Below, piece by piece: positions 30,737-60,651 of a DNA stretch of 64,000 nt. The notes beneath the pieces are model-generated. The model worked only from the letters and a program-made list of their open reading frames with translations. It had not been told where the DNA came from and ran no database searches. The position numbers and the translations under genes are program-made. Positions within the stretch are counted from its first letter, which is position 1. Each line of letters begins with the position of its first letter. The stretch comes from an uncultured Ardenticatenaceae bacterium. GTDB lineage: Bacteria > Chloroflexota > Anaerolineae > Promineifilales > Promineifilaceae. The stretch lies in NCBI GenBank assembly GCA_964422535.1, contig CAYRBP010000010.1:791-64790 (forward strand), given 5' to 3'.

Positions 30737-31188
30737 ATCTGCCGCTGTTGATCGTTGCCCTGCGCATTGCCAGCGCTGCCCTGCTGTTGGGCTTCTTTGG
30801 TCACATTGCGTGGTTACTGGTCAGGGACCTTCGCACCAGCCGGCGATTGCTGCAGAGCCAGCAGCCGGAACTCGGAGCCCTGCGCGTCATCCGCTCAACG
30901 ACCGGCAGTCCTGCTCCGGACACGATCTTCACGATCGGCGCGCAGACGAGCATCGGCCGCAGTGCCCGCAACACCATCGTCCTGGACGAGGCCTATGTTT
31001 CGGCCGAGCATGCCCTGCTGGCGCGGCGGGACAACAGGTGGTGGCTGGAGGACCTGGGCAGCCGCAACGGCACCCTGCTGAACGACCTGCCGCTGGCAGA
31101 GCCTACGATTGTGTCAAGCGGAGACGTCGTGACGATCGGAGGGGTCGAACTGAGGCTCGAACTGGACGGCGACGCCAGTCCAGTGTAG
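30733..31188 (+). CDS. membrane-anchored FHA-domain protein (FhaB/FipA-like)
   Basis: The ATG overlaps the previous stop (ATGA). The TM helix is LPLLIVALRIASAALLLGFFGHIAWLLV. The FHA reads TSIGRSARNTIVLDEAYVSAEHALL...GSRNGTLLND. Confidence 0.8.
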   Translation: MNLPLLIVALRIASAALLLGFFGHIAWLLVRDLRTSRRLLQSQQPELGALRVIRSTTGSPAPDTIFTIGAQTSIGRSARNTIVLDEAYVSAEHALLARRDNRWWLEDLGSRNGTLLNDLPLAEPTIVSSGDVVTIGGVELRLELDGDASPV

Positions 31189-32752: not shown

Positions 32753-32836
32753 CCGATGTACTGCCTGCCCTCCATCATAGTCGACCCGGCTAACCTGCAC
32801 AAGATTGCTCCTGTGAAGATTGCGTATCTTTTCCTC

Positions 32837-32865
32837 TTGGCAGTGGGCCTTTCGCGGCTTATAAT
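32837..32865 (+). promoter_or_regulatory. sigma70-like promoter (TTGGCA - 17 nt - TATAAT) upstream of the response regulator
   Basis: TTGGCA lies at 32837-32842 and TATAAT at 32860-32865, about 58 nt upstream of the ATG at 32923. Confidence 0.55.
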
Positions 32866-32922
32866 GGAGTTTCCTTAAAGAAAACAGGGACGTTCGCCGG
32901 TCCTCAGCAGAATAGAAGGGAA

Positions 32923-33609
32923 ATGGGATCAACGCCACAAATCCTGCTCGTGGAGGGTCATGGAGCAGGGAGGGAATCACTTGCGCCGATGCTGGCCAAG
33001 TCCGTATATGACGCACATGTCGTTCATACGGGCAGCCAGGCGCTGGAATGGTTGCAGGTTCAGGATGCGGACCTGATCATTTTCGACGCCTCGTCGATGC
33101 GCTCGAATGGCGTCAGGAGCTGCCAGCGCATCCGCAAAGCGGCTGAAAGGACGCCGATCATCTTCAGCCGGGCGGCCGGGGAGGAACTGGACCGATCGGC
33201 CGGGGCCGACGTCTATCTCGAGAAGCCGTTCTCGGGCCGCAAACTCCTCAACCGCGTGCGAGCCCTGTTGCCGGCCGATAGCGCGAAAGAGGAGATCGTC
33301 CGCTACGGTCCGCTGACACTCTACCGCACCAAGCGAAGTGTCGAGGTTAGCGGCCGTGGCGAATACACCCTGACGCCGAAGCTCGCCCAACTGCTGGAAG
33401 CCTTCATCCGCCACCCGAACGAGCTTCTGACAAGACCGCAGTTGATGCTCACCGTGTGGGAAACCGACTTCATCGGCGACACTCGCACGCTTGACGTCCA
33501 CATTCGCTGGATTCGCGAGTGCATCGAAGCGGACCCTGGCCACCCCCAATGGCTGAAGACCGTGCGCGGCAAGGGCTATCTGCTGCACATCAACGGCCCC
33601 GCGGAGTAA
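32923..33609 (+). CDS. OmpR/PhoB-family response regulator (orphan)
   Basis: The REC domain has DLIIFD (phospho-Asp), S/T and K (YLEKPF). The winged-helix C-terminus reads LTPKLAQLLEAFIRHPNELLTRPQLMLTVWE...RTLDVHIRWIRECIE. No histidine kinase lies nearby. Confidence 0.85.
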   Translation: MGSTPQILLVEGHGAGRESLAPMLAKSVYDAHVVHTGSQALEWLQVQDADLIIFDASSMRSNGVRSCQRIRKAAERTPIIFSRAAGEELDRSAGADVYLEKPFSGRKLLNRVRALLPADSAKEEIVRYGPLTLYRTKRSVEVSGRGEYTLTPKLAQLLEAFIRHPNELLTRPQLMLTVWETDFIGDTRTLDVHIRWIRECIEADPGHPQWLKTVRGKGYLLHINGPAE

Positions 33610-37455: not shown

Positions 37456-37555
37456 GCCAATTAATATACCTTAATTTAACTATCGCCGCTAGCCATCCGA
37501 ACTGCCGGGCATGGGACGCCCTGCCCTTGGAGCCGCGCGACGTTCCGGAGTGGAC

Positions 37556-38695
37556 ATGAATCAAACACAAACCAAGCTACCGATTTCCCAGCGGCCCGTG
37601 CCGGGCGATCTGGCCTGGCAAGACGAGGATGCCTTCCTGCGCGAAGCCGGCGCGCAGAGCCTGCGGACTGAAGCCACTTATCGAAGCGGCCTGCGGCTTT
37701 TTGCCGACTGGCTCCAGCACTACCGCAAGGGTGGCTACGGCAAATCCGACCCGTGGCCGCTGCAGCCCGACGGTCTTTCGACCGATGTCGTCCTGGAGTT
37801 CCGCAACTGGCTGTTGTCCAATCGCTCCCGCGCCACGGTGACCACCTATATGGCCGCCGTGGTCGGTTACCTTCACTATCTGGACGGCCACGACCTGCTG
37901 CCGGATGAAGTCCAGCTCGGCAAGCTGCAACGCCAGATGGCCCGCCGGCAGATCGAGCGCAACCAGGCGGAGAGCGTGATCGACCTGGACGTGGCCCGCC
38001 AGGACATGCCGAAGATCATCGAATACTACGATTCGCTACCGCTGCCGGCGGAGAACGACCAATATAACCGCCGCCTGTCGCTGCTTCGCGACCGGGCCGT
38101 GGTCAAGGTGCTCTACTCAACGGCCGCCCGCATCTCAGAAGTCGTCTCACTCAACCGGGCCAACGTCAACCACGGCCGCTCGGAGTACGCCACCGTCATC
38201 GGCAAGGGTAATAAGGGTCGGACGCTCTATTTCCGCGCCTACGCTCGTGAAGCGCTGGTTGCGTATCTGGCCGAGCGGACCGACACCAACCCGGCCCTTT
38301 TCGTCTCGCACAGCCGCAATTCGGCGAACGCGCGACTGACGATCACGTCGGTCCACAACACGATCAAACGCGCGGTCAAAGCGCTGGGCCTGCATGAGAG
38401 CCTCTCTGCCCACGATTTTCGCCATTACAGGGCGACTCAGCTGCTCCGGGCCGGCATGCCACTGGAGGTCGTCCAGGAGTTTCTTGGCCACGCCGATGTA
38501 ACGACGACCCGCAATATCTATGCCCCTGTCCTGGGTGTTCAGGTCGTCACGGAATGGCTGAACAACATGGACGTCGCCCCGGAGGAGGCGCTGCGAGAAC
38601 AGCGGCACGTCGAAGCGCCACGGCTGTTGCCGGTGTCACAATGGGATCCGGACGAGCCGCTTTCCCCCACCCTACCTGAGGATGTCTTATCCTGA
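37556..38695 (+). CDS. tyrosine recombinase / phage-type integrase family protein
   Basis: It has a SAM-like N-domain (TYRSGLRLFADWL) and the catalytic pattern STAARISEV (Arg I), HDFRHY (H-x-x-R) and LGHADVTTTRNIY (His/Tyr). I chose the ATG at 37556 because GGAG lies 5-6 nt upstream. The ATG at 37511 is also possible. Confidence 0.85.
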   Translation: MNQTQTKLPISQRPVPGDLAWQDEDAFLREAGAQSLRTEATYRSGLRLFADWLQHYRKGGYGKSDPWPLQPDGLSTDVVLEFRNWLLSNRSRATVTTYMAAVVGYLHYLDGHDLLPDEVQLGKLQRQMARRQIERNQAESVIDLDVARQDMPKIIEYYDSLPLPAENDQYNRRLSLLRDRAVVKVLYSTAARISEVVSLNRANVNHGRSEYATVIGKGNKGRTLYFRAYAREALVAYLAERTDTNPALFVSHSRNSANARLTITSVHNTIKRAVKALGLHESLSAHDFRHYRATQLLRAGMPLEVVQEFLGHADVTTTRNIYAPVLGVQVVTEWLNNMDVAPEEALREQRHVEAPRLLPVSQWDPDEPLSPTLPEDVLS

Positions 38696-38736
38696 TAAAG
38701 TGCGGTAATCGCTACACGAAATATCACCGTCCGCGG

Positions 38737-39579
38737 CTAGCGCGGTACCTGCCCTTCGACCGCCTTTGCCCGGGCTTCCATGCGGCGGATCGGGTCGTAA
38801 CCCGCATCGGTGGCGGGCGCAAACCGGCTCAGCCGGCCCTCGGCCAGGATCGCCCGGCCTTCTTCGGTCCGGTCCAGGGCCAGCATCTCGGTTCGAATCG
38901 CTTCGCGGATCGGTTCCGGCACCCGGGCTGAAATGACGATGGGCGGGATTGGGCTGGGTCCGAGCACGGCCACAATGCGCAGCGCCTCGGCCAGCTGCGG
39001 CCGCCGCTCCATCTCCCATTCGAGGACCGTGCTGTCGATCGCCGATGTGTCGGCCCGGCCGTCGAGCACCGCCTCAATCGAGTTGACATGCCCCCCGCTG
39101 GCGCTCGTGCGGCCGAAGTAGGCGACCGTCTCGCCAAGTGTCGCCAGGTGATGGCGCATGATGTGGTATCCCGACTGGGAGCCGGGTTCGTTGTAGACCC
39201 AGTGCCTGCCCCTCAGGTCAGCAAAGGTCCGGGCCCGGTCTCCGGCCCGGACGATGACATCGGAGTAATAGACCGGCCTGTCGCTGTATCGCGCCCCCGC
39301 CATGACAGGCGCGACGAGCAGCGACAGCGGGGCATTGCCCGCCAGCCGCACATAGGGCCAGCCACAGATCCAGCCCAGGCTGATGGCCCCCCGACTGATG
39401 CCGTCATAGGCGTCGCGCCAGTCGCACGCCTCCAGAAAACGCACCGGTTGCGCGAGTCGACGGCCGAGATACGCAGCCAGCGCCCGGGAGACCGGCACGG
39501 TGTTGTCAGCCTGGCAGGTGGCGAAGGTCAGGTCCTCCTCCGCCTGCCAGGCCTGCGCGTCCCCGTCGTGGTGCATCAC
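38737..39579 (-). CDS. PhnD-like (phosphonate/phosphite-type) substrate-binding-fold protein without signal peptide
   Basis: It shows the type-2 SBP pattern of the PhnD family (L.FA......V..AL..YL...L..PV.F......W.DAYD.IS.G.I.LGWI; YYSDVIVRAGDRARTFADLRG..W.YNEP.SQSGY). The N-terminus MMHHDGDAQAWQAEEDL is hydrophilic, with no TM helix or lipobox. Confidence 0.65.
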   Translation of the reverse strand: MMHHDGDAQAWQAEEDLTFATCQADNTVPVSRALAAYLGRRLAQPVRFLEACDWRDAYDGISRGAISLGWICGWPYVRLAGNAPLSLLVAPVMAGARYSDRPVYYSDVIVRAGDRARTFADLRGRHWVYNEPGSQSGYHIMRHHLATLGETVAYFGRTSASGGHVNSIEAVLDGRADTSAIDSTVLEWEMERRPQLAEALRIVAVLGPSPIPPIVISARVPEPIREAIRTEMLALDRTEEGRAILAEGRLSRFAPATDAGYDPIRRMEARAKAVEGQVPR

Positions 39580-40907
39580 ACCCAGGGCGAGTGGCTGTTG
39601 GTCGACCCGAAGGTCCGCCCCTCCGCGTAGCGGCTGAAAGCGAAGGGCTTCAGGTCAGGCACGTCGTCACCCATCAGGTAGGCCGCCACCAGCTTGCCGG
39701 CGCCCAGCATCTTGAAGCCGTGATTGCTGTCGGCGATCATGTAGACGTTTGGCGTTACCCAGTCCAGTACAGGCACATTGTCGGGCGTGAACGCGCCGAT
39801 GCCGCCGTTACGCCGCTCGCGGAAGTTCGACCGGATACCCTCGAAGCGACGCATCGTCTGGGCCATTCCGGCACACAGATAGTCGGCGAACTCCGGCTCG
39901 GCCTGGTACTCGTCGTTGTCGTGTCCATAGGGATCGGTCACGGCCGTCGGTCCCAGCTTGATTGGCACAGTGCCGCCCTGCAGGCCCGGCCGGTCCATCC
40001 GTTCGTTGCCGTTCTTGAAGTAGAGATACGTCCAGTCGCGCAGGACCCGGCCGGTCTCCTCCTCGACGACGGGCGTGCTCATCTTCTCCACGTGGAGCAC
40101 GGGCGGGTTCAGGCCGGCGGCCGTCAGATAGGGCTGGTCGTAGTAGACTTCTCCCTCCAGCAGCCGCCAGTAAGTCCACATATCCTTTCGGGCGGATCCC
40201 CCGTCCGGGTAGTGGACGTCGAGTTCCATCGGCCGCCCCAGCATCTCCCAGTGCTTCGGCGTCCATGCCCCCAGCCCCCAGATGACGAGTTCGCACGCGA
40301 TCTCGCCCCGGTCTGTCGCCACTTTCCTGACCTGCCCCCCCTCGGTCACATAGCCGGTTACCGCCACACCGCTGATGACGCGGACACCTTCGTCGAGGCA
40401 CTTCTGGGTCAGGCCCCTGATCACCTGCCGCGTGCCGGCGTAGCCGCTGATGCGTTCGTGCAGGGCCACATCCACACCGTCGGTCTTGAAGTCGGGCCAG
40501 ATGCCGGTCAGGAAGTCGCGCGCCTCGCGGCCGACATAGAGGTCGGAGTGGTAGCCGACCCGGTTCTGGCTCTGATGGATGCGCTCGTAGTCGGAGGTCT
40601 GGTTCGCCTCGCCAATCGACACGTAGCCGACTTGCTGAAACCCGAAGGCAACCGGATCGACCATCCAGACATCAACGCTGTGCCGAAGAAGGGCGTGGAT
40701 AGGCTCGGTCATATAGAAGTTGCGGACACAGCCACAGGCGATGCCCGACGCGCCTGCCCCGGGCCCGGTCTTGTCCAGCACGACGATGTCGGCTCCACTT
40801 CCGCGCCCGCGCCGGCGCAGTTCCTGGGCCAGGTGCCATGCCGTGCTGAGTCCGTGGACGCCGGCGCCGATCACCACATAGCTCACAGATTCGGGTAGTT
40901 TGTCCAT
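39576..40907 (-). CDS. FAD-dependent oxidoreductase (DAO family, sarcosine/dimethylglycine-oxidase-like)
   Basis: 443 aa with the N-terminal dinucleotide motif YVVIGAGVHGLSTAWHLA. It has DAO-type length and pattern. Confidence 0.8.
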   Translation of the reverse strand: MDKLPESVSYVVIGAGVHGLSTAWHLAQELRRRGRGSGADIVVLDKTGPGAGASGIACGCVRNFYMTEPIHALLRHSVDVWMVDPVAFGFQQVGYVSIGEANQTSDYERIHQSQNRVGYHSDLYVGREARDFLTGIWPDFKTDGVDVALHERISGYAGTRQVIRGLTQKCLDEGVRVISGVAVTGYVTEGGQVRKVATDRGEIACELVIWGLGAWTPKHWEMLGRPMELDVHYPDGGSARKDMWTYWRLLEGEVYYDQPYLTAAGLNPPVLHVEKMSTPVVEEETGRVLRDWTYLYFKNGNERMDRPGLQGGTVPIKLGPTAVTDPYGHDNDEYQAEPEFADYLCAGMAQTMRRFEGIRSNFRERRNGGIGAFTPDNVPVLDWVTPNVYMIADSNHGFKMLGAGKLVAAYLMGDDVPDLKPFAFSRYAEGRTFGSTNSHSPWV

Positions 40908-40978
40908 TTCACATTTCTCCGAGTGCCAAGTCTGGGTTGAAGCCGATAAGGGATCGATCTGGCGCGTTCCGGCCGCTC

Positions 40979-42526
40979 TCAGCCGGCCCCGGCCAGTTCG
41001 GACTTGCGCCGCTCGACGTAGGCGCGAAGCTCCTCTTCCACGCCCGGGTCAAGCGGCGGCCGTTCGTATTCACCAAGCAGCACTTTCGCGATCCCGTGCG
41101 CTCGCCGGGCAGCATCCGATTGGCCATCCTGCAGCCACTTGTCATAGTTCTGGCGATCGCTGACGAAGGGCAGGTAAAACTCCGACCGGTAGCGCTCCAA
41201 CGTGTGGGCAGTGCCGAGGTGATGCCCGCCCGGCCCGACCTCGGCGATGGATTCCAGCGCCAGCGTCTCATCGCTGACCTCCACCCCGCCCAGCATCCGC
41301 TGGAAGACCGCCAGCCCCTCGACATCGATGACGAACTTCTCCAGCGAGCAGACGAGTCCCGCCTCCAGCCAGCCCGCGCTGTGCAGGATGATGTTGGCGT
41401 GGGCCATGACCGCCGGCCAGAGACTCATCTGCGTCTCGTAACTCGCCTGGGCGTCGGGCAGCTTGGCGTTGTTCAACCCCCCACTCCCGCGATAGGGGAC
41501 GCCGTAGTAACGCGCCAGCTGCGCCCCGGTCATCAGTGCCAGCGCCCCTTCGGGCGTTCCAAAGGCCGGGCTGCCGGTCTGCATGTCGATATTGGTGGTG
41601 AAGCCGCCGTAGATGACAGGGCAGCCCGGGTTGACCAGCTGCGTCAGGGCGATCCCGGCCAGCGCCTCGGCATTCTGCTGGGCGATCGCCGCCGCCAGGG
41701 TCACCGGACTCATCGCCCCGGCCAGGATGAAGGGCGTCACGATCGCCGGCTGGCCGTAGCGGGCAAACATGATCAGGCCGCCCAGCATCCGCCCGTCGAA
41801 GCGCAACGGGCTGTTGGCATTGACCACAGCCGCCATGACCGGCTGTCGCTGGACTGAATCGAGGCCACCGAAGACGATAGCGGCCATGCGGATATAGTCG
41901 GACGCCACGTCGCGGCCGTGGGCAGCGGCCGTGTAGACTTTGTCGCTGGTCGTCAGCTGGATCAGGTTCTTTTCCAGGTGCCGGATCGGGACGGGGACAT
42001 CCTGCGGTTCCAGCAGCAGGCCCTCGACGATGTGGATGGGGTTGCATACCTGAGCCAGCCTCACCATCTGTTCGAACGCAGCCAGGGAGCCCGGGCGCCG
42101 GCCCGTCTCCAGGTCGGAGTAGAAGGGCGCGCCGCCAACCGTCGCGAAGTTCACCGCGTTGCCGCCGAAGACGAGCGATCGCTCGGGGTTGAGGGCGCGC
42201 AGGGTGAACTCCGAAGGCGCCTTGCCGACGAGCGAGAGCAGGTGCTCCCGGTCGATCCACACGTGCTGGCCTTTCCAGTCCACCCGCGCGCCGGCATCAT
42301 GCCAGAGCTGCAGGGCCTCGGCATCGAGAAAGTCGATGCCGATCTCCTCCACAATGCGCATGGAGGCTTCGTGGATGCGGGCCAGCTGCTCACCGGACAG
42401 CGCTTCGAGCGGCCGGAACGGGTTCCGGACCAGCCGGAAGGGCTTGCCGTCCATCGGTCCGGCCGCGCCCGGACGCTGGCGGGTGCGACGGTTGGTGGAA
42501 CGCTGGGACACTATCGGTTCGCCCAT
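40979..42526 (-). CDS. MttB-superfamily (trimethylamine methyltransferase family) protein, non-pyrrolysine
   Basis: 515 aa. After a basic N-terminus comes PFRPLEALSGEQLARIHEASMRIVEEIGIDFLDAEALQLWHDAGARVD, typical of COG5598/MttB-family TIM barrels. There is no in-frame TAG. Confidence 0.8.
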   Translation of the reverse strand: MGEPIVSQRSTNRRTRQRPGAAGPMDGKPFRLVRNPFRPLEALSGEQLARIHEASMRIVEEIGIDFLDAEALQLWHDAGARVDWKGQHVWIDREHLLSLVGKAPSEFTLRALNPERSLVFGGNAVNFATVGGAPFYSDLETGRRPGSLAAFEQMVRLAQVCNPIHIVEGLLLEPQDVPVPIRHLEKNLIQLTTSDKVYTAAAHGRDVASDYIRMAAIVFGGLDSVQRQPVMAAVVNANSPLRFDGRMLGGLIMFARYGQPAIVTPFILAGAMSPVTLAAAIAQQNAEALAGIALTQLVNPGCPVIYGGFTTNIDMQTGSPAFGTPEGALALMTGAQLARYYGVPYRGSGGLNNAKLPDAQASYETQMSLWPAVMAHANIILHSAGWLEAGLVCSLEKFVIDVEGLAVFQRMLGGVEVSDETLALESIAEVGPGGHHLGTAHTLERYRSEFYLPFVSDRQNYDKWLQDGQSDAARRAHGIAKVLLGEYERPPLDPGVEEELRAYVERRKSELAGAG

Positions 42527-43155
42527 GCCGGCTCCTCTACGGTCAGCGGCCTCCTGGCGCGCCAGACGGGAATCGAGCGATAGTCGTAGTACTTGACCAG
42601 GTGCAACTGCAGCGCATCCGGGCGGCGTACACCGTGGGGCAACACGCCGTTGTAGATGCGGACGGAGGTGTAGAGGCCCGGCAGCAGCTCGCGGAGCGCC
42701 GCAGCATGGCGGGGCGAAGCGCCAAAACGGTCTTTGGCTTCCGGCGAGTCAAACAGCACAAGGTTGGCGTAGTTGCTCGTCACCAACTGGATGCTGACAT
42801 AGCAGAGCAGGCCGTCATGGGCCGCCAGATCGTCCAGCATCTGCCGATCGAGCCTCTGGGCATGGCCCAGGTCTGCGGTCGGGCTGCGCTGGCCGAAGAA
42901 CCCCACAACCGTCAGCGAACCGGGTGACATCATGCGCTCCGGGTTCAACAGCACGCGGCGCAGCATCCACTGCTCAGGACCGGGCTGATAGAGGGTCACC
43001 GGCCGACCCGCGGGCGGATCTGTGGCGTGCTCCAGGGTCAGGCAGACGGTGGTGACTAGGTAGCGCATCACCTGCATATCGATCATCGAGTGACGCAGAT
43101 CGGTGAACGGTCGGTCGGCCAGGACTTCCTGTGGATCAAGTACGATCTCGCTCAT
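42511..43155 (-). CDS. hypothetical protein (214 aa) co-transcribed with the MttB-family gene
   Basis: The ATG at 43155 has GAGGTG 5 nt upstream. Its 3' end overlaps the MttB-family start by 16 nt. I recognised no family motif. Confidence 0.6.
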   Translation of the reverse strand: MSEIVLDPQEVLADRPFTDLRHSMIDMQVMRYLVTTVCLTLEHATDPPAGRPVTLYQPGPEQWMLRRVLLNPERMMSPGSLTVVGFFGQRSPTADLGHAQRLDRQMLDDLAAHDGLLCYVSIQLVTSNYANLVLFDSPEAKDRFGASPRHAAALRELLPGLYTSVRIYNGVLPHGVRRPDALQLHLVKYYDYRSIPVWRARRPLTVEEPAWANR

Positions 43156-43167
43156 GATCACCTCGAA

Positions 43168-43947
43168 TCACGCGCTTTCCGGTTGGATGCGAAGTGGCCC
43201 GCGATGGCCCAGTTCGGCCGATGCCAGGGCAGCGGTCTCCATCAGCGGCTCGACAAAACCCAGCAGTGTCTCGCGGGGCATGCGGAACGTTGGCCCGGAA
43301 ACGGAGATGGCGCCGGCGACGCGGCCGCGATGGTCAAGCACGGGCGCGGCAATGGCGCTGAACGCCTGTTCAAACTCCTCCTCCACCGTCGCATAGCCGC
43401 ACGCCACGACGCGCTCGATCTCGCTGTCCAGCGCCTCGTGAGTATCGATGGTGTTTTGTGTGTAGCGCCGCAATGGCGGCGGCAACAACTCCCGACGCTG
43501 CTGCGGCGTCAGGTTGGCCAGCAAGATCTTCCCGCTGGCGGTGCAGTGAAGCGGCAGGCGGCGGCCGATCCAGCTGGCGTATCGGAGCGGTTTCGGACTG
43601 GCTTTGTTGTCAACGTTGAGGCAGTCCTGCCCATCCAGGATGTTGACGGTGATCGTCTCCTGTGTCGCCTGGACGAGACTGTCAAGGTACTGGTAGGCGG
43701 CGCCGCGGACATCGACCTGGCCCAAAGCGACGCCGGCCATGCTGATCAACCCTACCCCAAGGCGGTATCGGCTGTTGCGCGGGTTCTGGCTGATCAGGCC
43801 CTCCTCCTCAAGCGTAGAGAGCATCCGGGAGACCGTGCTCTTGTGCAAGTCGAGTCGCTGGCTGAGTTGGGTCACGCTCAGCTCCGGTTCTGCTTCGCTG
43901 AAACATCTCAGAATGGCGACAGCCCGGTTGATCGACTGGATCGACAT
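43168..43947 (-). CDS. IclR-family transcriptional regulator
   Basis: It has the N-terminal wHTH SINRAVAILRCFSEAEPELSVTQLSQRLDLHKSTVSRMLSTLEEEGLI and an IclR effector domain. Confidence 0.9.
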   Translation of the reverse strand: MSIQSINRAVAILRCFSEAEPELSVTQLSQRLDLHKSTVSRMLSTLEEEGLISQNPRNSRYRLGVGLISMAGVALGQVDVRGAAYQYLDSLVQATQETITVNILDGQDCLNVDNKASPKPLRYASWIGRRLPLHCTASGKILLANLTPQQRRELLPPPLRRYTQNTIDTHEALDSEIERVVACGYATVEEEFEQAFSAIAAPVLDHRGRVAGAISVSGPTFRMPRETLLGFVEPLMETAALASAELGHRGPLRIQPESA

Positions 43948-43976
43948 GTCTTACCCGTGCAGAAGGCTAACTGTTG

Positions 43977-44005
43977 CGTATCGTGAAACCATGTTTCACG
44001 ATACG
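43977..44005. promoter_or_regulatory. perfect 13-bp inverted repeat, candidate IclR operator
   Basis: The sequence is CGTATCGTGAAAC-CAT-GTTTCACGATACG. It sits 30 nt upstream of the iclR-family start codon. Confidence 0.55.
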
Positions 44006-44152
44006 GTAGCGAATATTGTTAGCACGACGGGAACCGTTTGTCAACAAAGAGAGGCGGACAGCGAAAGGCCCGGCCGCGTTCGGCCGGCCCGATTGGTTGA
44101 TTGGCCTGCCAACAGGAGGGGTGGCGTGGATCGGCCGGCCCGATGCCGGCGC

Positions 44153-45304
44153 TTAATTGGCATCCAGGAGGGCGATGTGGTCGAGCAGGTCGGAGACGAC
44201 CTGGACGTTGTTCATCGATACGCGGATGGCAAGCGCGGCCGCGCCAAGATAGAGCGCCAGTTCGGACAGAAACGCCAGGTGCCGGTAGGGCTGGGCCGCA
44301 TCGGCCAGCAACACCAGTGCCCGCCCCGCGGCTCTGATGCGCCGCCCCGCCTCTACGAGCTGCGCGGTGCTGCCCCACGCGGCCGCCTCGAGCGCAAGCA
44401 ACGAAGCCGCCTTGGCCTGCAGGCAGAGGTCCACCTCATCGAGTGTTGAAAGCCCTCTGTGCGCGGCCAGCCGGACGGAGAGCCGCCGGAAGCCCACCGC
44501 CTCCTGCAACTGGCTCATCGCGGCGGCCCGCATGATGCTGTCATCCAGATAAAGGGCGTCCTCGACGATCAGCGGCAGGGGCGCGGCCGTCGCTGCCAGA
44601 CCCGCAAGCGGGCCCAGGATCCGCCCGTAGTGCAGGCGCGGGTCGGGCGTGAGCTGTCCCAACGCGCCGTTGAGGGCCAGATACACGGCCGGCCGGTACT
44701 CTTCAGAGGTGAGGGCCGGCACCCGCGCGCTCAATTCCCGCACGAACCGCTGGAGGTCCGTGGCGTCGGGGCCGACGATGTCGGTCAGTTCGTCCGCCGT
44801 CAGCCGATAGCCAATACCGTCCGGGCGCTGCAAGATGACCTGGTCGAAGACCTCGGCGGTTGCCGCGTAGTCCGGCACTTCGACGTAGAGGCCGAGGCCG
44901 GGCATGTCACGCTCGAGTGGCCCGAATTCGACCTCGAGTTGGCGAAAGCGCGAAGTACCCTGCGCGGCCGATACGGCCGTCAACAGGGCCTGTTCCACGC
45001 CGAGCCTGACTTCGGGGGCGTTGAGAAGCGGATCGGTTGATGCGTCAAGGCAGGCGGCAAGCGGCCGAAACGCGTCGGCCGGTTGATGTCCGACGGCCGC
45101 TGTGATACTGTCTTCCAGGCGGCGCGGGATGTCCGCCCGACTGCCGAGCGGCCAGAGCGCCTCCGGCAGCAGACAGGCGCCTTCGTAGATGCGTCCATCG
45201 GACGCCCGCAAGCCGACGGAGACGGCAAGCGGTTGGCGTCCCAACGGGTCGGTTGGCCGGTGCAGGAGACGGACGGCAGCCTGCTCAATGTAGACGATTG
45301 ACAT
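44153..45304 (-). CDS. hypothetical protein (383 aa), possibly a divergent enolase-superfamily / methylaspartate-ammonia-lyase-like fold
   Basis: The ATG at 45304 gives MSIVYIEQAAVRLLH. The overall length and a few segments (RLGVEQALLTAVSAAQG; VYLALNGALG...PLPLIVEDAL) loosely resemble MAL/enolase-type proteins by eye only. The product call is weak. Confidence 0.5.
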   Translation of the reverse strand: MSIVYIEQAAVRLLHRPTDPLGRQPLAVSVGLRASDGRIYEGACLLPEALWPLGSRADIPRRLEDSITAAVGHQPADAFRPLAACLDASTDPLLNAPEVRLGVEQALLTAVSAAQGTSRFRQLEVEFGPLERDMPGLGLYVEVPDYAATAEVFDQVILQRPDGIGYRLTADELTDIVGPDATDLQRFVRELSARVPALTSEEYRPAVYLALNGALGQLTPDPRLHYGRILGPLAGLAATAAPLPLIVEDALYLDDSIMRAAAMSQLQEAVGFRRLSVRLAAHRGLSTLDEVDLCLQAKAASLLALEAAAWGSTAQLVEAGRRIRAAGRALVLLADAAQPYRHLAFLSELALYLGAAALAIRVSMNNVQVVSDLLDHIALLDAN

Positions 45305-45731
45305 GACACGTATCCATCGCGAACCGCCTCGGAGAGGCGCCATCCTGGCCGGCTGCTTCGTCAGCGCCCTGGTCGTCGCGTTCGTGCTGCTCGCCGCGAT
45401 GGTCCTGGCTTTCCGCGCTGACCGCGACGCGGCGCGCTATCCTGGCGCGACCGTGGTGACCAGTCACAGCAACTACCAGGGACTCCCTACCCAGATACGA
45501 TGGGACAACAGCTACTTCACGACTGACAATTTCACCGATGTCTACAACTGGTACTCGCTGACCTTCGACCTGGGCGCTGAATCGCGCGCGCTCGAACGCT
45601 GCATCGAACTCGACGGTCCGGTCCGGCGACTGCTGACCGTTCAGACCGTCAACGTTTTGATCTGCGGCAGGGACGAAGGCCAGCTCGTCTACGTCACCCG
45701 CACGACGGCGCTGGCCCTGCCGGGTCGCTGA
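45303..45731 (+). CDS. membrane-anchored hypothetical protein (142 aa)
   Basis: It has one N-terminal TM helix (ILAGCFVSALVVAFVLLAAMVLAF) followed by a ~100-aa domain. Its ATG shares 2 nt with the divergent ATG at 45304. Confidence 0.55.
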   Translation: MTRIHREPPRRGAILAGCFVSALVVAFVLLAAMVLAFRADRDAARYPGATVVTSHSNYQGLPTQIRWDNSYFTTDNFTDVYNWYSLTFDLGAESRALERCIELDGPVRRLLTVQTVNVLICGRDEGQLVYVTRTTALALPGR

Positions 45732-45740
45732 GCGGCCGTC

Positions 45741-46400
45741 TCACGCCACGTCGCGGATATCGACGATCTCCTGGTCCGGAACCTGGCCCAGGACGATTCG
45801 CGCTTTCTCGGCCGAGACGTTCCGTATCTTGATGACAGCGTCAAAGTACCCTTCGTGCCGGGGTGTCGGGAACGTGCCGATGCCCATGACGCCCCACTTC
45901 TGCTCGCCCAATACGGCCGATAGCTTGGCGAATTCGCCGGGACGGTCCGGCATGCGCATGGTCACCCGGACGCCTTCGTAAGGCAGGCCCAGCATGAGCT
46001 GGAAAACGTGGAGCAGGTCCACTTCGGTCAGGATGCCGACGACCACATCGCCGTGCTCGACGACAGGCAGGCAGCTGGCTTTCTGTTCGACCATGTAGCG
46101 CGCCGCGCGTTCGATCGTCCGCTCCGGCTCGATCAACACCACCTTATCCACCGGCGTCATGACATCGCTGACGGTCATCCGCGACAGGTAGCGGGTGATC
46201 TCCCACATGTCGAGGCTACCCAGCGTACCCGGATCAAGGGCGAAGCTGAGCTGGTCAACCAGCCCGACAAGGCGCTTGCCGTCACCAACCACGGGCAGGT
46301 GGCGGATGCGGTTTTCGTGCATCAGGTGCTCGGCCTCGGCCGCCATCATCGTCGGCGGAACCATCACGGGATGGCGTGTCATGCAGTCCTTGACAAGCAT
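45741..46400 (-). CDS. CBS-pair + ACT-like domain protein (AcuB-like)
   Basis: It has two CBS motifs (MTRHPVMV...IRHLPVV; VMTPVDKVVLIE...CLPVVEHGDVVGILT) and a C-terminal ACT-like region. Confidence 0.8.
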   Translation of the reverse strand: MLVKDCMTRHPVMVPPTMMAAEAEHLMHENRIRHLPVVGDGKRLVGLVDQLSFALDPGTLGSLDMWEITRYLSRMTVSDVMTPVDKVVLIEPERTIERAARYMVEQKASCLPVVEHGDVVVGILTEVDLLHVFQLMLGLPYEGVRVTMRMPDRPGEFAKLSAVLGEQKWGVMGIGTFPTPRHEGYFDAVIKIRNVSAEKARIVLGQVPDQEIVDIRDVA

Positions 46401-46405
46401 TGGTC

Positions 46406-48586
46406 CTAAGCCTCCTGCGGATCGCCCGTCCCCACCGGCGCGGCGATGACGGGATCGAACGTGCTGAGCGTCTCAACCGGAATGTGGCAGAAGATGCGGT
46501 GGCCGTCGCCCACCTCCTGCCACGGCGGCAACTCCGACTCACAGATCTTGCCGCCGTCCGGCAGCAGCCTGCGCCGTGGGCAGCGGGTGTGGAACCGGCA
46601 GCCGCCTGGGGGATCGATGGCGCTGGGTACGGTCCCCTCCAGCCGGATGCGTAGCTGCTGCGCCCTGGGGTCGGGGATGGGAACGGCCGAGAGCAGCGCC
46701 TCTGTGTATGGATGGTACGGCGGTGCGTAGATGGCGTCAGCCGGGCCGATTTCAACGATCTGCCCCAGGTACATGACCGCGACGTAGTCTGAGAAGAAAC
46801 GCACAACACTGAGGTCATGGGCGATGAAGATGAGCGTCGTCCCGTACTCCTTCTGCACGTCGATCAGCAGATTCAGCAACGCGGCCTGGACCGACACATC
46901 CAGGGCGCTGACGGGCTCATCGCAAAGCACCAGGTCGGGCCGGCTGGCCAGCGCCCGCGCGATGCCGACCCTCTGCTTCTCTCCGCCGCTGAGCTGGCGA
47001 GGCAGGCGGTCGTAGTAATTTTCGCCCAGCCGGACTGCCTCCAGCAGGCGGACGACTTCATCGCGGATCTGATTCCGCGGAACCGTCCCGAAACGGGCCA
47101 TCGGCCGCCCTATCTGGCTGCCGACCGTGAACGATGGATTCATCGTTGCGTCGGGGTTCTGGAACACCATCTGCAGTTCCTGGATGAGCCGCGTGTCACG
47201 CTCGCCCAGGTCGCCTGTGATATCGAAACCCATGAACCGGGCTTCGCCGTTGGTGCTGCTCTCCAGTCCGATGATCGTCTTGACGAGCGTGCTCTTGCCA
47301 CAGCCCGACTCGCCGACGATACCCAGTGTCTTGCCTTTGGGCACTGAGAACGTCGCGTCTTCGAGCGCCTTGACAAGGCGCTTTTCGCCCAGGCCGAGGA
47401 CGTCTTTCAACGAGTTGCCCTGAATGGGATAGTACTTCTGCAGGTTGCGGACCTCCAGGATGTCGCCGTTCGTATCCGGTCCGCTCCCCCCTGCGGGAGC
47501 GGACGCTACGGCAGGGTCAGCCGTCGGCACCCAGGCGGTGGGGTCGATCTGCTCGGCGAAGTGGCAGCGAACCGCGGAGCCGCCGGGGAGTTCGCGCAAC
47601 TCAGGCCGCTCCGCCCGGCAGCGGGCTTCAACATAGTCACAACGCGGGCCGAACACGCAGCCGATCGGCCGGTTGTTCGGCGCCGGAACGCGCCCGCGAA
47701 TGGGGTACAGCACGCTGCTGGCCTTATCGGTGCCCAGCCGCGGGACACATCGCAACAGGCCCTGGGTATAGGGATGCTGCGGCTTGGCGAAAAGCTCTTC
47801 GACGGTGGCGCGCTCGACCATCTCCCCCGCATACATCACGCCAACGCGGTTGCAGATGCGGGCGATGACGCCCAGGTTGTGGCTGATGAACATGATCGCC
47901 GTGTCAAAGTCGCGCCGCAACTCGGCGATCAGGTCAAGCACGGCCGCCTCGACGGTCACGTCGAGGGCCGTGGTCGGCTCGTCCATGATCAGCAGAGCCG
48001 GGTTGTTCAGCAGTGCCATGGCAATCACGACCCGCTGCTGCTGGCCGCCCGAGATCTGATGCGGGTAGCGCTTGAGCACGTTGGCCGGGTCCGGCATGTA
48101 GACGCGGTCGAGCGTGCTGATGCATCGTTCGGTTGCTTCCTCATCGCTCATGCCGCGATGAACGGTCAGAACTTCCTTCATCTGGTCGCCCAGGCGCATC
48201 GACGGGTTGAGGGCCTGCATCGGGTCCTGGTAGACCATGGCGATCTGATCGCCGCGCAGCTGTCGCAACTCCTCCCCCGTCTTGCCGAGCAACTCCTGGC
48301 CCTGGAACTTGATGCTCCCGCGCTTGACATAGCCGTTCGCCCCGAGGAAGTTGACCACTGCCCAAGCTGTCGTGCTCTTGCCGCAGCCGGACTCCCCCAC
48401 GACGCCGAAAGTCTCGCCGCGAGCGATCTCGAACGACACGTTCTGGATCGCCTCGACTTCGCCGCCCCGGATCTTGTAGGCGACGGACAGGTTCTCGATC
48501 TTGAGAACCGGCATCTTCGGGCCAGTGATCTGCCAACCCGGGGTGGCGGCGTTGTCGACAGGCATGCTCATGATCTCGCCCTGCAT
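46406..48586 (-). CDS. fused double ATP-binding protein of a peptide/opine/nickel-type ABC importer (DppD-DppF fusion)
   Basis: It has two Walker A motifs (GESGCGKST, twice) and two signature motifs (ISGGQQQRV, LSGGEKQRV). Each half ends in an oligopeptide-type Cys-containing C-terminal extension. Confidence 0.9.
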   Translation of the reverse strand: MQGEIMSMPVDNAATPGWQITGPKMPVLKIENLSVAYKIRGGEVEAIQNVSFEIARGETFGVVGESGCGKSTTAWAVVNFLGANGYVKRGSIKFQGQELLGKTGEELRQLRGDQIAMVYQDPMQALNPSMRLGDQMKEVLTVHRGMSDEEATERCISTLDRVYMPDPANVLKRYPHQISGGQQQRVVIAMALLNNPALLIMDEPTTALDVTVEAAVLDLIAELRRDFDTAIMFISHNLGVIARICNRVGVMYAGEMVERATVEELFAKPQHPYTQGLLRCVPRLGTDKASSVLYPIRGRVPAPNNRPIGCVFGPRCDYVEARCRAERPELRELPGGSAVRCHFAEQIDPTAWVPTADPAVASAPAGGSGPDTNGDILEVRNLQKYYPIQGNSLKDVLGLGEKRLVKALEDATFSVPKGKTLGIVGESGCGKSTLVKTIIGLESSTNGEARFMGFDITGDLGERDTRLIQELQMVFQNPDATMNPSFTVGSQIGRPMARFGTVPRNQIRDEVVRLLEAVRLGENYYDRLPRQLSGGEKQRVGIARALASRPDLVLCDEPVSALDVSVQAALLNLLIDVQKEYGTTLIFIAHDLSVVRFFSDYVAVMYLGQIVEIGPADAIYAPPYHPYTEALLSAVPIPDPRAQQLRIRLEGTVPSAIDPPGGCRFHTRCPRRRLLPDGGKICESELPPWQEVGDGHRIFCHIPVETLSTFDPVIAAPVGTGDPQEA

Positions 48587-48611
48587 TCGACCTGGTAACT
48601 CCTTCGGCCAA

Positions 48612-49547
48612 TCACTTCTGGTAGCGGCTCAACTCTTCACGCAGGCCGTCACCCAGAAGGTTGAGCCCGATGACCAGCGTCGCAATGGCAAGCGAAGGCC
48701 AGATCACCGGCCACGGCGACGAAAAGATGAAGCGGCGCGCATCGTTGACCATGCTGCCCCAGTCGGGGTCGGGCGGCGGCAGGCCCAGGCCGAGGAAACC
48801 CAACGTGCCGATGGCGAAGATGGCATAGCCAACGCGGAGCATCGAATCGACGATCAGCGGCCCGCGCGCGTTGGGCAGGATCTCGCGGAACATGATGTAC
48901 CAGCTACTCTCGCCGCGCGTCTCGGCTGCCCGGACGTAGTCGCGGGTGCTGATGTCCAGCGTCAGGCTGCGGGCTAGTCGAGCGACGCCCGGCGCGCCGG
49001 TGATGGCGATGGCCAGGATCACAACCAGGTCGCTCTGGCCGAGCGCGGCAATGACCACCAGATAGAGGACGATGCGCGGAAAGGCGATCAGCGCGTCCTG
49101 CACCTGCATGATCCCCTGGTCCCACCAGCCGCGCTTGTAGCCGGCCACCTGGCCGAGCAGCGTGCCGATGACGAGCGACCAGAACACGCCCCAGATGGCC
49201 ACGCCGCCGGGGATGGAAATCGTCTTCCCGTCTCCCACCGGCACCCGCGTCTTGAGCAGGACAACCTGCGTGCCGGTCATGATCCGCGACAGCTCGTCCC
49301 GGCCGAGGTGGTCGGTCCCCAGCCAGTTGACTCTATTCGGAGGCAGGTTCTGCTCGAACAGCGACGCGTTGGGCGGGTATGGCGTCCAAAACAGCGAGAC
49401 AATGCCGACAGCCAGCCAGAACACCACCATGAACAGGCCCACGGTCGCGACGCGCGACTCGAAGACAATCGAGATCGCGTTCCACAGACGCCGCCAGCGC
49501 GACGGTCGCGCGGCGGCGGTTGCCGTAGCAGGTTGGGCAATTGCCAT
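48612..49547 (-). CDS. ABC transporter permease (DppC/OppC-like)
   Basis: It is a six-TM BPD_transp_1 protein with an EAA-like loop (YVRAAETRGESSWYIMFREILPN). Confidence 0.88.
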   Translation of the reverse strand: MAIAQPATATAAARPSRWRRLWNAISIVFESRVATVGLFMVVFWLAVGIVSLFWTPYPPNASLFEQNLPPNRVNWLGTDHLGRDELSRIMTGTQVVLLKTRVPVGDGKTISIPGGVAIWGVFWSLVIGTLLGQVAGYKRGWWDQGIMQVQDALIAFPRIVLYLVVIAALGQSDLVVILAIAITGAPGVARLARSLTLDISTRDYVRAAETRGESSWYIMFREILPNARGPLIVDSMLRVGYAIFAIGTLGFLGLGLPPPDPDWGSMVNDARRFIFSSPWPVIWPSLAIATLVIGLNLLGDGLREELSRYQK

Positions 49548-49562
49548 ACTGGTCCTATCCCC

Positions 49563-50861
49563 CTAGCTGTAGCGGATGCGCGGGTTGAGCATTGTATAGG
49601 CCAGGTCGCCCAGGAGCCGGGTGCCAACCGCCACAACGACCAGGATCATCGCCCCGGCCTCGACGGCGTTGAAGTCGCCGAAGATCGCGGCGTCATAGAT
49701 ATACTTACCCAGGCCCGGATAGCCGAAGACCACCTCAACGACCACCAGGCCACCGACCAGCCAGTTCACGTGCAGCATGATGATCGTGATCGGGGCCAGG
49801 AGGGCATTGCGGACGGCGTGACCGAAAATGACGCGGTTGCGCGGCATGCCCTTGATGATCGCGGTACGGATGTAGGACGAATCCATGACCTCAACCATGC
49901 TCGCCCGGGTCATGCGCGCCACGTAGCCAAGCTCGGCCGCGGTCAGGGTCAGGACCGGCAGGATCAGCAGGCTGGGATTCTCGAAGATCGCATTGGGCGT
50001 CGTGAAGATGGCGACCGCCGGGACCCACTTCAGCCAAATGCCAAAGATGAGGATCACGAAGATGCCTGTCACAAACTCCGGGGTAGAGGTCATCGCCAGG
50101 CCTGTGACCGAGATCGTCCTGTCGACTGACTTTCCTTCGTTGACGCCGGCAACGATACCCAGGAAGAGGGCCAGGGGCATCACCACAACGAATGCAGCGG
50201 CGGCCAGCACGATCGAGTTTCGCAGCCGCGGCCAGAGGGTCACCGATACCGGTCGTCCCGTTTGCAGCGACTTACCGGCGTCGCCTCGGAGCAGGCCGCG
50301 TTTCAGCGGGATGTACTGCTGCGGGCCGTCACCCTCCCGGCGGAGGCCGGCCTTGGTCAGCACCCAGACCTCCTCCCCCGCGCCCCGGACCCATTTGACC
50401 GCGCTATTGTCTTCGTTCACGCCCCAGAAGATCTCCGCGCCGGACTCGTCCCGTTCCCACTGGACGTCGGTCACCACGACGGCCGTCGTGCCGTCCGGTT
50501 GCAGCACCAGCGTCTTGAGCACGCCGTCCTCCATTCGCCAGCGCGTCAGGTTGCCGTTCACGTTCGCCCACCACGTCTGCTCGCCGGTGACCACGTTGTT
50601 GACCGTGACCAGTTCGTGGCCGACCAGGTCTTCCGCGCGCCAGTCATTGCCGGCCACCCAATCCAGGTAGCGCTGCCACGTGGGGGCGTCAAGGCCCAGC
50701 TGAGCACGGTAGGACGCGCGCTGCTCCGGAGTGGAGAAGACACCGAGGATGCGAACGGTGACGTCGCCCGTTGCAACCTCAAGGAGGAGCCAGAGCAGGA
50801 CCGATACCAGGAACATAGTGATGACGGTCGAGACGGCGCTGCGCACCAGGAAACGAGCCAT
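49563..50861 (-). CDS. ABC transporter permease (DppB/OppB-like) with enlarged first extracytoplasmic loop
   Basis: The N-terminus MARFLVRSAVSTVITMFLVSVLLWLL and the EAA loop (YIRTAIIKGMPRNRVIFGHAVRN) are standard. A ~150-aa soluble insertion lies between TM1 and TM2. Confidence 0.85.
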   Translation of the reverse strand: MARFLVRSAVSTVITMFLVSVLLWLLLEVATGDVTVRILGVFSTPEQRASYRAQLGLDAPTWQRYLDWVAGNDWRAEDLVGHELVTVNNVVTGEQTWWANVNGNLTRWRMEDGVLKTLVLQPDGTTAVVVTDVQWERDESGAEIFWGVNEDNSAVKWVRGAGEEVWVLTKAGLRREGDGPQQYIPLKRGLLRGDAGKSLQTGRPVSVTLWPRLRNSIVLAAAAFVVVMPLALFLGIVAGVNEGKSVDRTISVTGLAMTSTPEFVTGIFVILIFGIWLKWVPAVAIFTTPNAIFENPSLLILPVLTLTAAELGYVARMTRASMVEVMDSSYIRTAIIKGMPRNRVIFGHAVRNALLAPITIIMLHVNWLVGGLVVVEVVFGYPGLGKYIYDAAIFGDFNAVEAGAMILVVVAVGTRLLGDLAYTMLNPRIRYS

Positions 50862-50955
50862 GACAGCCTCCTACGGGACCAGACCGATCCCGAGCGAGGA
50901 AAAGAAGACGGCGCCGGCCTTCACGCGGCCGGCACCGTGACACCGATGATGCCCG

Positions 50956-52674: not shown

Positions 52675-53085
52675 CGTATCTCCTCCAAACGACGTGGGGC
52701 CCCAATGTGAGGCAACCGCCAGTGTGCTGCAGCCCGGTGAATCAGCCGAGGTTGAACGGGTCATCCCGTTACGTCATTCGTTACCCATCGCACCTCCTCC
52801 GGTTGAGATCATGAAATGGTCCTCAACCTTGCTAGACATGAGGCAAGCGGAGTGGCGTAAGAACGGTGATGGCTGTGAAGTGGAAGGTAGGCGTGCAGAA
52901 AAGAGTGAAGGCCAACCGCTGGGCCTGAGGCCTCGCTCAGGAGTCAGTATCCCGGATAGAGTGGTATGCCGTATGGTTGCCTTCAAGGGTATGCTGGTCT
53001 GTCTGTTAACGCCCCGAGGTTGCCGGGACACCGGGGCACCCGTCGAACGACCTGTCGAATCGGATTGCAGACGGCAGGCGGAAAA

Positions 53086-55013: not shown

Positions 55014-55134
55014 GGCGCGGCCCGGCGATCTGTATGGCCGGCACATTTGGCATCACGAATCATTGTATGCGCGTCACCTTGTGCGTTTGCCGGCCATCTG
55101 GCTACAATGCACCATCCCGCGCGGATCGGGCGAC

Positions 55135-57435: not shown

Positions 57436-57449
57436 GAGGTAGCAAGATC

Positions 57450-60618: not shown

Positions 60619-60651
60619 CCGGACGAACGACGAACCCGGAGCACACGCAAC

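Follow-up and report, generated by a model that had tools for sequence, protein, structure and literature searches.

An MttB-family methyltransferase operon with unusual accessory genes in an Ardenticatenaceae bacterium of the Chloroflexota

We describe a five-gene operon in a stretch of DNA from an uncultured Ardenticatenaceae bacterium (Chloroflexota; assembly GCA_964422535.1, contig CAYRBP010000010.1, positions 791 to 64,790), the whole of which, 64,000 nucleotides (64 kb), is called the window here. The operon (38737-43947, minus strand) encodes an IclR-family regulator, a protein without a named family (U216), a methyltransferase of the MttB superfamily, an amine oxidoreductase of the DAO family that depends on flavin adenine dinucleotide (FAD), and a leaderless solute-binding-fold protein similar to PhnD and AioX (PhnDl). 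It is probably a substrate-specific add-on to an aerobe-type cobalamin-dependent methyl-transfer system similar to MtgB/C/D/E. The corrinoid partner of the methyltransferase is almost certainly encoded elsewhere in the genome, as judged from relatives. The substrate is probably an acidic quaternary amine other than glycine betaine, with glycine betaine as the second candidate. The new part is the uncharacterized helper trio of DAO, U216 and PhnDl, two of which (U216 and PhnDl) are fused in other bacteria; methyl transfer from a non-pyrrolysine (non-Pyl) MttB to a corrinoid is already known.

Gene content and conservation

All five genes lie on the minus strand. The first codes for the IclR-family transcription regulator (43168-43947, 259 aa), with matches to HTH_IclR (E 4e-19) and IclR_C (E 2e-41). 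It is followed by U216 (42511-43161), which has 216 aa when read from a GTG codon, or 214 aa when read from an ATG two codons later (43155), the length of the homologue P0001. The non-Pyl MttB-superfamily methyltransferase (40979-42526, 515 aa; PF06253) overlaps U216 by 16 nt. Next come the DAO gene (39576-40907, 443 aa; PF01266) and the gene for PhnDl (38737-39579, 280 aa; PF12974), where stop and start overlap by 4 nt. An earlier reading made from the sequence alone (the sequence-only reading) had proposed this operon with the same two overlaps, and the open reading frames (ORFs) and the Pfam and NCBIfam matches bear it out.

The MttB homolog matches PF06253 (MTTB) with E 4.6e-194 over residues 10-511 of 515, a full-length match to this TIM-barrel family. 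Its ORF is uninterrupted over 515 codons, with no in-frame UAG, and it scores 349 bits on the pyrrolysine-type model TIGR02369, well under the cut-off of 525 bits, so that it is assigned to the non-Pyl members. Its best structural relatives are 4yyc and MtgB (9yce/2qne), with E about 1e-118, while Pyl-type MttB (7xcl) reaches only 9e-54. Identity is 42% to PDB 4yyc and 40% to MtgB of Desulfitobacterium hafniense, about equal distances, and Pyl-type MttB is far away.

A scan with MttB, limited to one genome per species, gave 80 loci (L numbers below designate fetched loci). The closest orthologs, at 60-75% identity, are all from Chloroflexota metagenome-assembled genomes (MAGs) of the Ardenticatenales/Promineifilaceae group, the best being Candidatus Promineofilum glycogenicum. 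Partner genes were counted over the 30 loci with MttB at 60% identity or more, using the evaluable loci as denominators; these counts are partly biased, since some of the loci had been seeded with U216 or DAO. DAO is present in 22 of 25, PhnDl in 19 of 21, U216 in 26 of 29 and IclR in 23 of 26. No gene of the module is better conserved than DAO (76-82% identity, and 98% in the near-identical contig L088). The 4.46-Mb chromosome CP070688.1 (locus L152, 13507-16896) carries MttB-DAO-PhnDl without IclR and U216, followed by a Pterin_bind gene and then by the glycine-cleavage genes GcvH and GcvP. These data support the operon as a real and conserved Chloroflexota module for quaternary-amine demethylation with unusual accessory genes, much as the sequence-only reading had suspected when it spoke of an uncharacterized module of this kind. 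The aerobic setting it had suggested also fits, the lineage being one of aerobic or facultative Chloroflexota. Our literature search found no paper on this module in Chloroflexota. Contig L088 (Ga0114939_10008129, 5.9 kb, metagenome) has the same operon at 94-98% amino-acid identity, so that a public JGI sample must contain a strain close to the source organism.

A candidate control region was found upstream of the IclR gene. There is a sigma-70-like promoter, TTGACA-18-AACAAT (44015-44044, minus strand), which is the sole promoter-like site in 38400-45500, where the number of such sites overall is at chance level. Its position fits, inside the 205-nt gap that follows the MAAL-like gene and just downstream of a terminator-like hairpin (44072-44055). 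The interval from the -10 box to the IclR start codon contains a perfect 13-nt inverted repeat, CGTATCGTGAAAC-ATG-GTTTCACGATACG (43977-44005), a candidate IclR operator. With up to 8 mismatches of 29 allowed, this palindrome recurs 40-75 nt upstream of the IclR orthologs in seven loci (L002, L003, L006, L088, L092, L094 and L095) and is seen at no other place in the 1.89 Mb of fetched loci. A search for cobalamin riboswitches in the 64-kb window found none.

The corrinoid partner

Pfam scans of the window's substantial coding-like ORFs detected no PF02310, PF00809 or RACo domain, and tblastn over the six frames of the 64 kb gave no match either to a lineage-specific corrinoid protein, to an MtgA-like pterin-binding methyltransferase or to RACo. 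The sequence-only reading was right that no B12-binding or MtgA-like gene lies in the window, and it had overlooked a DUF1638 gene that does.

In two relatives, the missing genes lie near the operon. Locus L011 (MttB 68% and DAO 78% identical) has the orthologous operon and then, within 7 kb, Pterin_bind, MTHFR, a corrinoid protein of 228 aa (L011 16251-16937) with B12-binding_2 and B12-binding domains, and RACo. Locus L153 (MttB 70%, DAO 76%) keeps the whole syntenic block from the ABC transporter through PhnDl and continues, within 10 kb, with Pterin_bind, MTHFR, S-methyl_trans and a corrinoid protein, S-methyl_trans representing the homocysteine module of a split MetH. In CP070688.1 the module and its adjoining Pterin_bind gene are at about 0.70-0.71 Mb, and RACo and a corrinoid protein are at about 1.26 Mb of the same chromosome, some 0.55 Mb apart. 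The corrinoid protein of this lineage is extremely conserved, more than 120 clusters from Anaerolineae/Promineifilaceae being at least 82% identical, and a locus from Promineifilaceae (L085) has a full MtgBCDE-like cluster composed of MttB, dimethylglycine dehydrogenase (DMGDH), ETF, RACo, corrinoid protein, S-methyl_trans, MTHFR and Pterin_bind. In L085 a gene for a flavodoxin-pentapeptide protein separates RACo from the corrinoid protein, and in L153 such a gene adjoins that of the corrinoid protein. Another pentapeptide-repeat protein, P0382 (640 aa, with a leaderless PhnD-like domain, pentapeptide repeats and a hydrophobic C-terminus), was considered as a link to the corrinoid genes and rejected, since only its repeats resemble that flavodoxin-pentapeptide protein.

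Within the fetched flanks, a corrinoid gene of any kind was present in 3 of the 30 close loci and in 2 of 70 loci with more distant MttBs. In this branch of MttB the partners are thus, as a rule, not adjacent, and the absence of corrinoid genes from a neighborhood is uninformative. Unlinked partners are also documented experimentally. The aerobe Ruegeria pomeroyi grows on glycine betaine by means of the MttB-family enzyme MtgB, with the genes for MtgC, MtgD, RamA and DUF1638 at separate loci, and marine bacteria have up to seven MttB paralogs per genome, which are thought to share one MtgC/MtgD core (PMC12478193). Every characterized member of the MttB family uses Co(I) (PMC13080624, PMC12155760).

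The DUF1638 gene (55620-56231, plus strand; PF07796, E 2e-24) is 13 kb from the operon and co-operonic with sarcosine oxidase genes (56200-61368, plus strand), which are 13-19 kb away: SoxB (56200-57435; 515 bits on TIGR01373), SoxA (1022 aa with an N-terminal Fer2_4 domain; 894 bits on TIGR01372) and a SoxG-like gene (60652-61368). Together with genes for a PucR-family regulator and a DinB_2 protein they make up a plus-strand cluster at 53352-61368. The grouping of DUF1638 with sarcosine oxidase genes instead of corrinoid genes is unusual. In Phaeobacter, DUF1638 mutants phenocopy split-MetH mutants, and the gene co-occurs with a RamA-like activator (PMC5764234); it is induced on the N-osmolytes carnitine, choline or glycine betaine (PMC12478193). 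By analogy with these systems, to which it is genetically tied, DUF1638 may be taken as a marker of corrinoid-dependent methyltransferases. Searching the related loci by tblastn with the DUF1638 protein of the window gave no copy, so its linkage to the module is seen in this window only.

Substrate and accessory proteins

In MtgB, four residues bind glycine betaine, two of which hold its carboxylate, and the substitutions Y97A and F356L raise the Km several-hundred-fold (PMC13080624). Residues Y97, R312, H348 and F356 of MtgB correspond to G131, R346, H382 and G390 in the window. The carboxylate-binding pair is kept (R346 and H382), and the cation-pi pair is not, both positions being Gly here and in all Chloroflexota orthologs. 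In all 80 close relatives the residue at the Y97 position is small and the aromatic pair is missing, and W386, common to all of them, might serve as its substitute. The same lineage has another MttB in the L085 cluster, beside the DMGDH-like gene. This separate paralog has the pattern YRHWG, keeping the Tyr, and is only 44% identical, which suggests that the specificity of the MttB in the window is different. A further, more divergent MttB paralog (31-35% identical, pocket SWHYG) is paired with a molybdopterin oxidoreductase of about 720 aa that has an Fe4S4 domain and no obvious twin-arginine translocation motif. This pair lies directly upstream of IclR-U216 in three relatives (L008 4860-8496, L011 2-3335 and L097 282-3922).

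DAO matches PF01266 with E 6e-34 and weakly matches the soxB, ThiO and MTOX models. On TIGR01373 (soxB) it scores 56 bits against a cut-off of 529 bits, which leaves it below equivalog level, and no folate-binding GCV_T domain was found in it by Pfam and NCBIfam scans. Its PDB matches are restricted to the N-terminal half (1y56_B, SoxB and DMGO); the FAD domain is related to the beta subunit of Pyrococcus horikoshii 1y56, deposited as 'sarcosine oxidase', and to those of SoxB and dimethylglycine oxidase. The family is huge and very conserved in Chloroflexota, with 5054 homologs at E<=1e-30, the best 120 of which are all at least 75% identical. As these available homologs are so similar, the AlphaFold2 model is poor (61.5 on the predicted local distance difference test, pLDDT) and was not used.

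The alternative that survives best is the ordinary catabolism of glycine betaine, which we regard as possible, if on the whole unlikely. MttB would then be a glycine betaine:corrinoid methyltransferase and DAO a folate-independent dimethylglycine oxidase, SoxBAG would convert sarcosine to glycine, and U216 and PhnDl would be auxiliary. This agrees with the conservation of R346 and H382, with the SoxB, SoxA and SoxG genes that accompany DUF1638 in the window and with GcvH and GcvP after the module in CP070688.1. Of the fetched loci, 23 contain a DMGDH-like gene, almost all of these being loci with an MttB about 45% identical, and in several, such as L027, L037 and L041, it takes the position of DAO; relatives from Acidimicrobiia, with the same small residue at the Y97 position, adjoin OpuA-type betaine transporters. 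On the other side, the window paralog is probably specialized otherwise, given the Y97-retaining MttB that Promineifilaceae have in a canonical DMGDH/ETF/corrinoid cluster. The kinetic effect of Y97A and F356L in MtgB, the window's transporter, which is of the Opp/Dpp type and not of the betaine type, and the low score of DAO on the soxB model (56 bits) also speak against it.

PhnDl matches PF12974 with E 1.2e-41, and its best PDB matches are AioX (6esk, E 1.6e-23) followed by ArrX and PtxB. Its pocket is formed by W54, C72, Y104, S134, S136, H164 and D182, six of which are identical to the AioX residues Tyr88, Cys106, Tyr131, Ser161, Ser163, His192 and Asp210 (PMC5908839), the exception being Tyr88, replaced by Trp. 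Residues Y47, Y93, S127, S129 and H157 of Escherichia coli PhnD correspond to W, Y, S, S and H. All seven positions are invariant in 19 of 19 orthologs. The family has 279 clusters at E<=1e-30 in a representative library of 1.84 billion proteins, and among its best 150 representatives the pocket is invariant wherever aligned. No signal peptide or lipoprotein anchor was found in PhnDl, which has only 16 acidic or polar residues ahead of beta-strand 1, and an alternative upstream start is not possible because the ORF opens at the first start codon after a stop. Leaders are equally missing from the 19 orthologs and from 92 of the 103 family representatives whose N-termini are complete. The sequence-only reading had taken PhnDl to be cytoplasmic for want of a signal peptide, which these data uphold, the chance of a leader hidden before another start having been checked and ruled out. 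There is no PhnC/PhnE-type ATPase and permease next to PhnDl in the window, the nearby ABC system being of the Opp/Dpp type with its own SBP_bac_5, and neither the window nor the related loci contain a histidine kinase or aio/arr/arx genes.

U216 has no match in Pfam, NCBIfam or PDB sequences, the latter also searched with a profile, and 116 clusters are homologous to it. Its AlphaFold2 model has a mean pLDDT of 90.5, and Foldseek places the model with the ABM/DABB proteins 2qyc, SnoaB (3kg0) and 3e8o (probability 1.0, E 8e-5 to 5e-4). Weak matches to PF03992 were obtained for 7 of 81 relatives (best E 0.006), and none for U216 of the window. The predicted fold is that of an ABM-like dimeric alpha+beta barrel. 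For the metagenome scan the 81-sequence alignment was too diverse, and a closer alignment of 18 sequences was used.

The representatives of three protein clusters, P0389, P0400 and P0499, are single chains with an N-terminal PhnDl domain and a full-length C-terminal U216 domain (E 1e-39 to 1e-52 with hidden Markov models). Neighbors of the gene for P0400 (L154, 2385-3755) are an MFS transporter gene and a DAO-type gene that is transcribed divergently. Several metagenome loci have parts of the trio without MttB: U216 and PhnDl are adjacent in L097-L099, L105 and L146, and U216 is beside a DAO ortholog in L105, L107, L111, L112 and L124. The fusion or the U216/PhnDl pair is next to other DAO-type genes in L146 and L154. 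Since they are fused and co-located even without MttB, U216 and PhnDl are partners of each other and of the flavoenzyme. MttB is the element added to this trio in Anaerolineae. The co-occurrence of U216, PhnDl and DAO-type genes without any MttB also speaks against the trio as a substitute methyl acceptor for MttB.

A second alternative, which we hold improbable, is an onium substrate that carries a tetrahedral oxyanion, for instance N-trimethyl-2-aminoethylphosphonate or else phosphocholine, choline-O-sulfate or an arsenical analog. PhnDl would then recognize the oxyanion, DAO would resemble the oxidases of aminophosphonate clusters and the ABM-like domain would carry out a further step. By the same slender chance, PhnDl and U216 would constitute an undescribed cytoplasmic two-domain system with a DAO-type flavoenzyme, coupled in Anaerolineae to a cobalamin-dependent MttB for the degradation of phosphonate, phosphate, sulfate or arsenical onium compounds, of which trimethyl-aminoethylphosphonate or an arsenobetaine-like molecule may be examples. 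To our knowledge, no demethylation route through an MttB-family enzyme has been described for such oxyanion-bearing onium compounds. The invariant pocket of PhnDl favors this alternative, as it keeps the five oxyanion-binding residues common to PhnD and AioX together with the Cys and Asp specific to AioX (PMC5908839). Moreover, the MttB family includes the phosphocholine enzyme MthB (PMC12155760), FAD oxidases act on N-methylated aminoethylphosphonate, the quaternary form of which is handled by no flavoenzyme (PMC10590968), and DAO weakly matches TIGR03329 (E 9e-7). However, no arsenic or phosphonate gene context (phn, pho, ars, aio or sulfatase genes) was found in the window or in any related locus, and the soxB model suits DAO better than the aminophosphonate one does. 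Among Anaerolineae of wastewater and sediment the module is also conserved and very abundant, which points to a common substrate, and the pocket could equally take a carboxylate.

Least tenable, and in our judgment highly improbable, is the corrinoid-independent aerobic demethylase of the sequence-only reading, in which the FAD oxidase and the cytoplasmic binding protein would be the immediate partners of MttB: the lack of a B12-binding or pterin-binding gene in the 64 kb, the tight coupling of the accessory genes by overlapping stops and starts and the conservation of U216, PhnDl and DAO as a set speak for it, and against it stand the corrinoid toolkits within 10 kb of the orthologous operons in L011 and L153, the single chromosome that holds module, RACo and corrinoid protein in CP070688.1, DUF1638 in the window, the published unlinked partners that are a known norm in aerobes, the trio-type sets without MttB and the use of Co(I) throughout the characterized family. 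That reading had named a co-regulated corrinoid/MtgA pair encoded elsewhere as one of the findings that would overturn it; relatives do encode a corrinoid protein together with a pterin-binding methyltransferase.

The reading we prefer, an add-on to a cobalamin-dependent system for an acidic quaternary amine, also has points that weigh against it. The window holds no corrinoid, pterin-binding or RACo gene, so that the partner is postulated from relatives. SoxBAG in the window and GcvH/GcvP beside the module of CP070688.1 fit a glycine betaine route. Relatives without the aromatic pair include loci that adjoin OpuA-type/glycine-betaine transporters or DMGDH-like genes, and therefore the residue pattern does not exclude glycine betaine. 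The roles proposed for U216 and for PhnDl, with its AioX-type pocket and Cys, are conjectural, and DUF1638, here among sarcosine oxidase genes, is without a demonstrated biochemical function.

For the source organism we infer the following steps. MttB would bind the acidic quaternary amine and pass one N-methyl group to the Co(I) of a corrinoid protein of about 228 aa encoded elsewhere. A pterin-binding methyltransferase would move the methyl group to tetrahydrofolate, and MTHFR would oxidize it further, into the folate pool, while an activator of the RACo/RamA type would keep the corrinoid reduced, probably with the help of the DUF1638 protein in the window. DAO would oxidize a C-N bond of the tertiary-amine product. 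PhnDl and U216, as one cytoplasmic unit, may bind the substrate or product by its oxyanion or acid group, which they would process or present to the flavoenzyme. IclR would autoregulate the unit through the conserved palindrome, and the Opp-type ABC transporter may import the substrate.

Neighboring genes and known systems

Upstream of the operon there are genes for a MAAL-like protein of the enolase superfamily (44153-45343, minus strand), a small membrane ORF (45303-45731, plus strand), a CBS protein (45741-46400, minus strand) and an Opp/Dpp-type ABC transporter on the minus strand, composed of an ATPase (46406-48586), two permeases (48612-49547 and 49563-50861) and SBP_bac_5 (50956-52764); the assignments are from Pfam. 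The synteny of these neighbors (44153-52764) is kept in L002, L003, L006, L009, L010, L012, L093 and L153, and Opp-type transporter genes also flank MttBs of about 45% identity in 8 proteobacterial or actinobacterial loci. The upstream neighbors possibly provide uptake and early steps, a link to the operon that we infer. Immediately downstream is a tyrosine-recombinase gene (37511-38695, plus strand). It has the same position, at 74-81% identity, in six relatives (L002, L003, L005, L006, L009 and L012), and is thus an old resident and not a recent insertion. In L011 and L153 the corrinoid toolkit occupies this side.

Other features were found further away in the window. An S-adenosylmethionine (SAM) riboswitch (RF00162, 86 bits; 1337-1438, plus strand) is directly upstream of the S-adenosylmethionine synthetase gene (1541-2818). 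A 913-aa fusion (10988-13729, minus strand) joins a threo-3-hydroxyaspartate ammonia-lyase-like pyridoxal phosphate domain (NF005454, 413 bits) to a D-2-hydroxyacid/phosphoglycerate-dehydrogenase domain. The gene for SelB, the selenocysteine-specific elongation factor (22130-24007, minus strand), implies selenoprotein synthesis in the source organism. A tRNA-Gly(CCC) (31194-31266, minus strand) falls within the 3' end of the longest ORF for a Wzy_C/O-antigen-ligase-like gene (31103-33016), which probably ends or starts differently from the mechanical ORF.

Our results would extend aerobic cobalamin-dependent demethylation of quaternary amines (MtgBCDE) to filamentous Chloroflexota, the closest named relative being a Candidatus Promineofilum MAG; several related contigs come from wastewater metagenomes. 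They also show that corrinoid partners missing from a gene neighborhood do not mean corrinoid independence. The large family of leaderless AioX-type binding proteins and its ABM-fold partner form a functional pair, which gives both proteins a testable context. If the substrate is an unusual onium compound, it would be a new specificity for the MttB superfamily.

Among known systems, MtgBCD(E) of Ruegeria pomeroyi (Mausz et al. 2025, PMC12478193) shares with the operon a non-Pyl MttB-family enzyme in an aerobe-type bacterium and amine-oxidizing genes nearby. It also has the corrinoid protein, pterin-binding methyltransferase, RamA/RACo and DUF1638 at other loci, in a core thought to be shared by paralogs. 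The Promineifilaceae core cluster with S-methyl_trans and MTHFR (L085, L153) matches it. The differences are the phylum and the sequence, the MttB of the window being about 45% identical to the proteobacterial members fetched, and the neighbors: a short DAO lacking a folate domain, a leaderless AioX-type protein, an ABM-fold protein and IclR, whereas R. pomeroyi-type systems have DMGDH and betaine transporters. MtgB/MtgC/MtgA of D. hafniense (2QNE, 9YCE; PMC13080624) includes an enzyme of the same TIM-barrel family, with E 1e-118, 40% identity and R312 and H348 kept; in the operon described here Gly replaces both Y97 and F356, the partner genes do not adjoin it and the host lineage is not a strict anaerobe. 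MthB/MthC/MthA/MthK, the phosphocholine system of Eubacterium limosum (PMC12155760), sets a precedent in which an MttB-family enzyme is served by an accessory enzyme of its own, which prepares or recycles a quaternary amine bearing an oxyanion. The corrinoid and tetrahydrofolate methyltransferase genes of that system are adjacent, and the operon of the window has no kinase.

The accessory proteins have known counterparts of their own. PhnDl shares six of seven pocket residues, Cys106 and Asp210 among them, and the motif WICGxP with the arsenic-oxyanion sensors AioX, ArrX and ArxX (6ESK, 6X6B; PMC5908839). Unlike these periplasmic proteins it is leaderless, has no histidine kinase/response regulator partner and no arsenic genes nearby, and has an ABM-like domain as its partner or fused to it. 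The model of U216 can be superposed on ABM barrels of about 100 residues (SnoaB 3KG0, 2QYC; PF03992), with TM scores of 0.56-0.78 normalized to the target. Unlike them, U216 is a single chain of about 215 aa that combines an N-terminal helix with two barrel halves; it has no Pfam match and is distinguished by its own invariant residues, R17, F19, a GFFG motif, N133, H152, R168, D193, W200 and R204.

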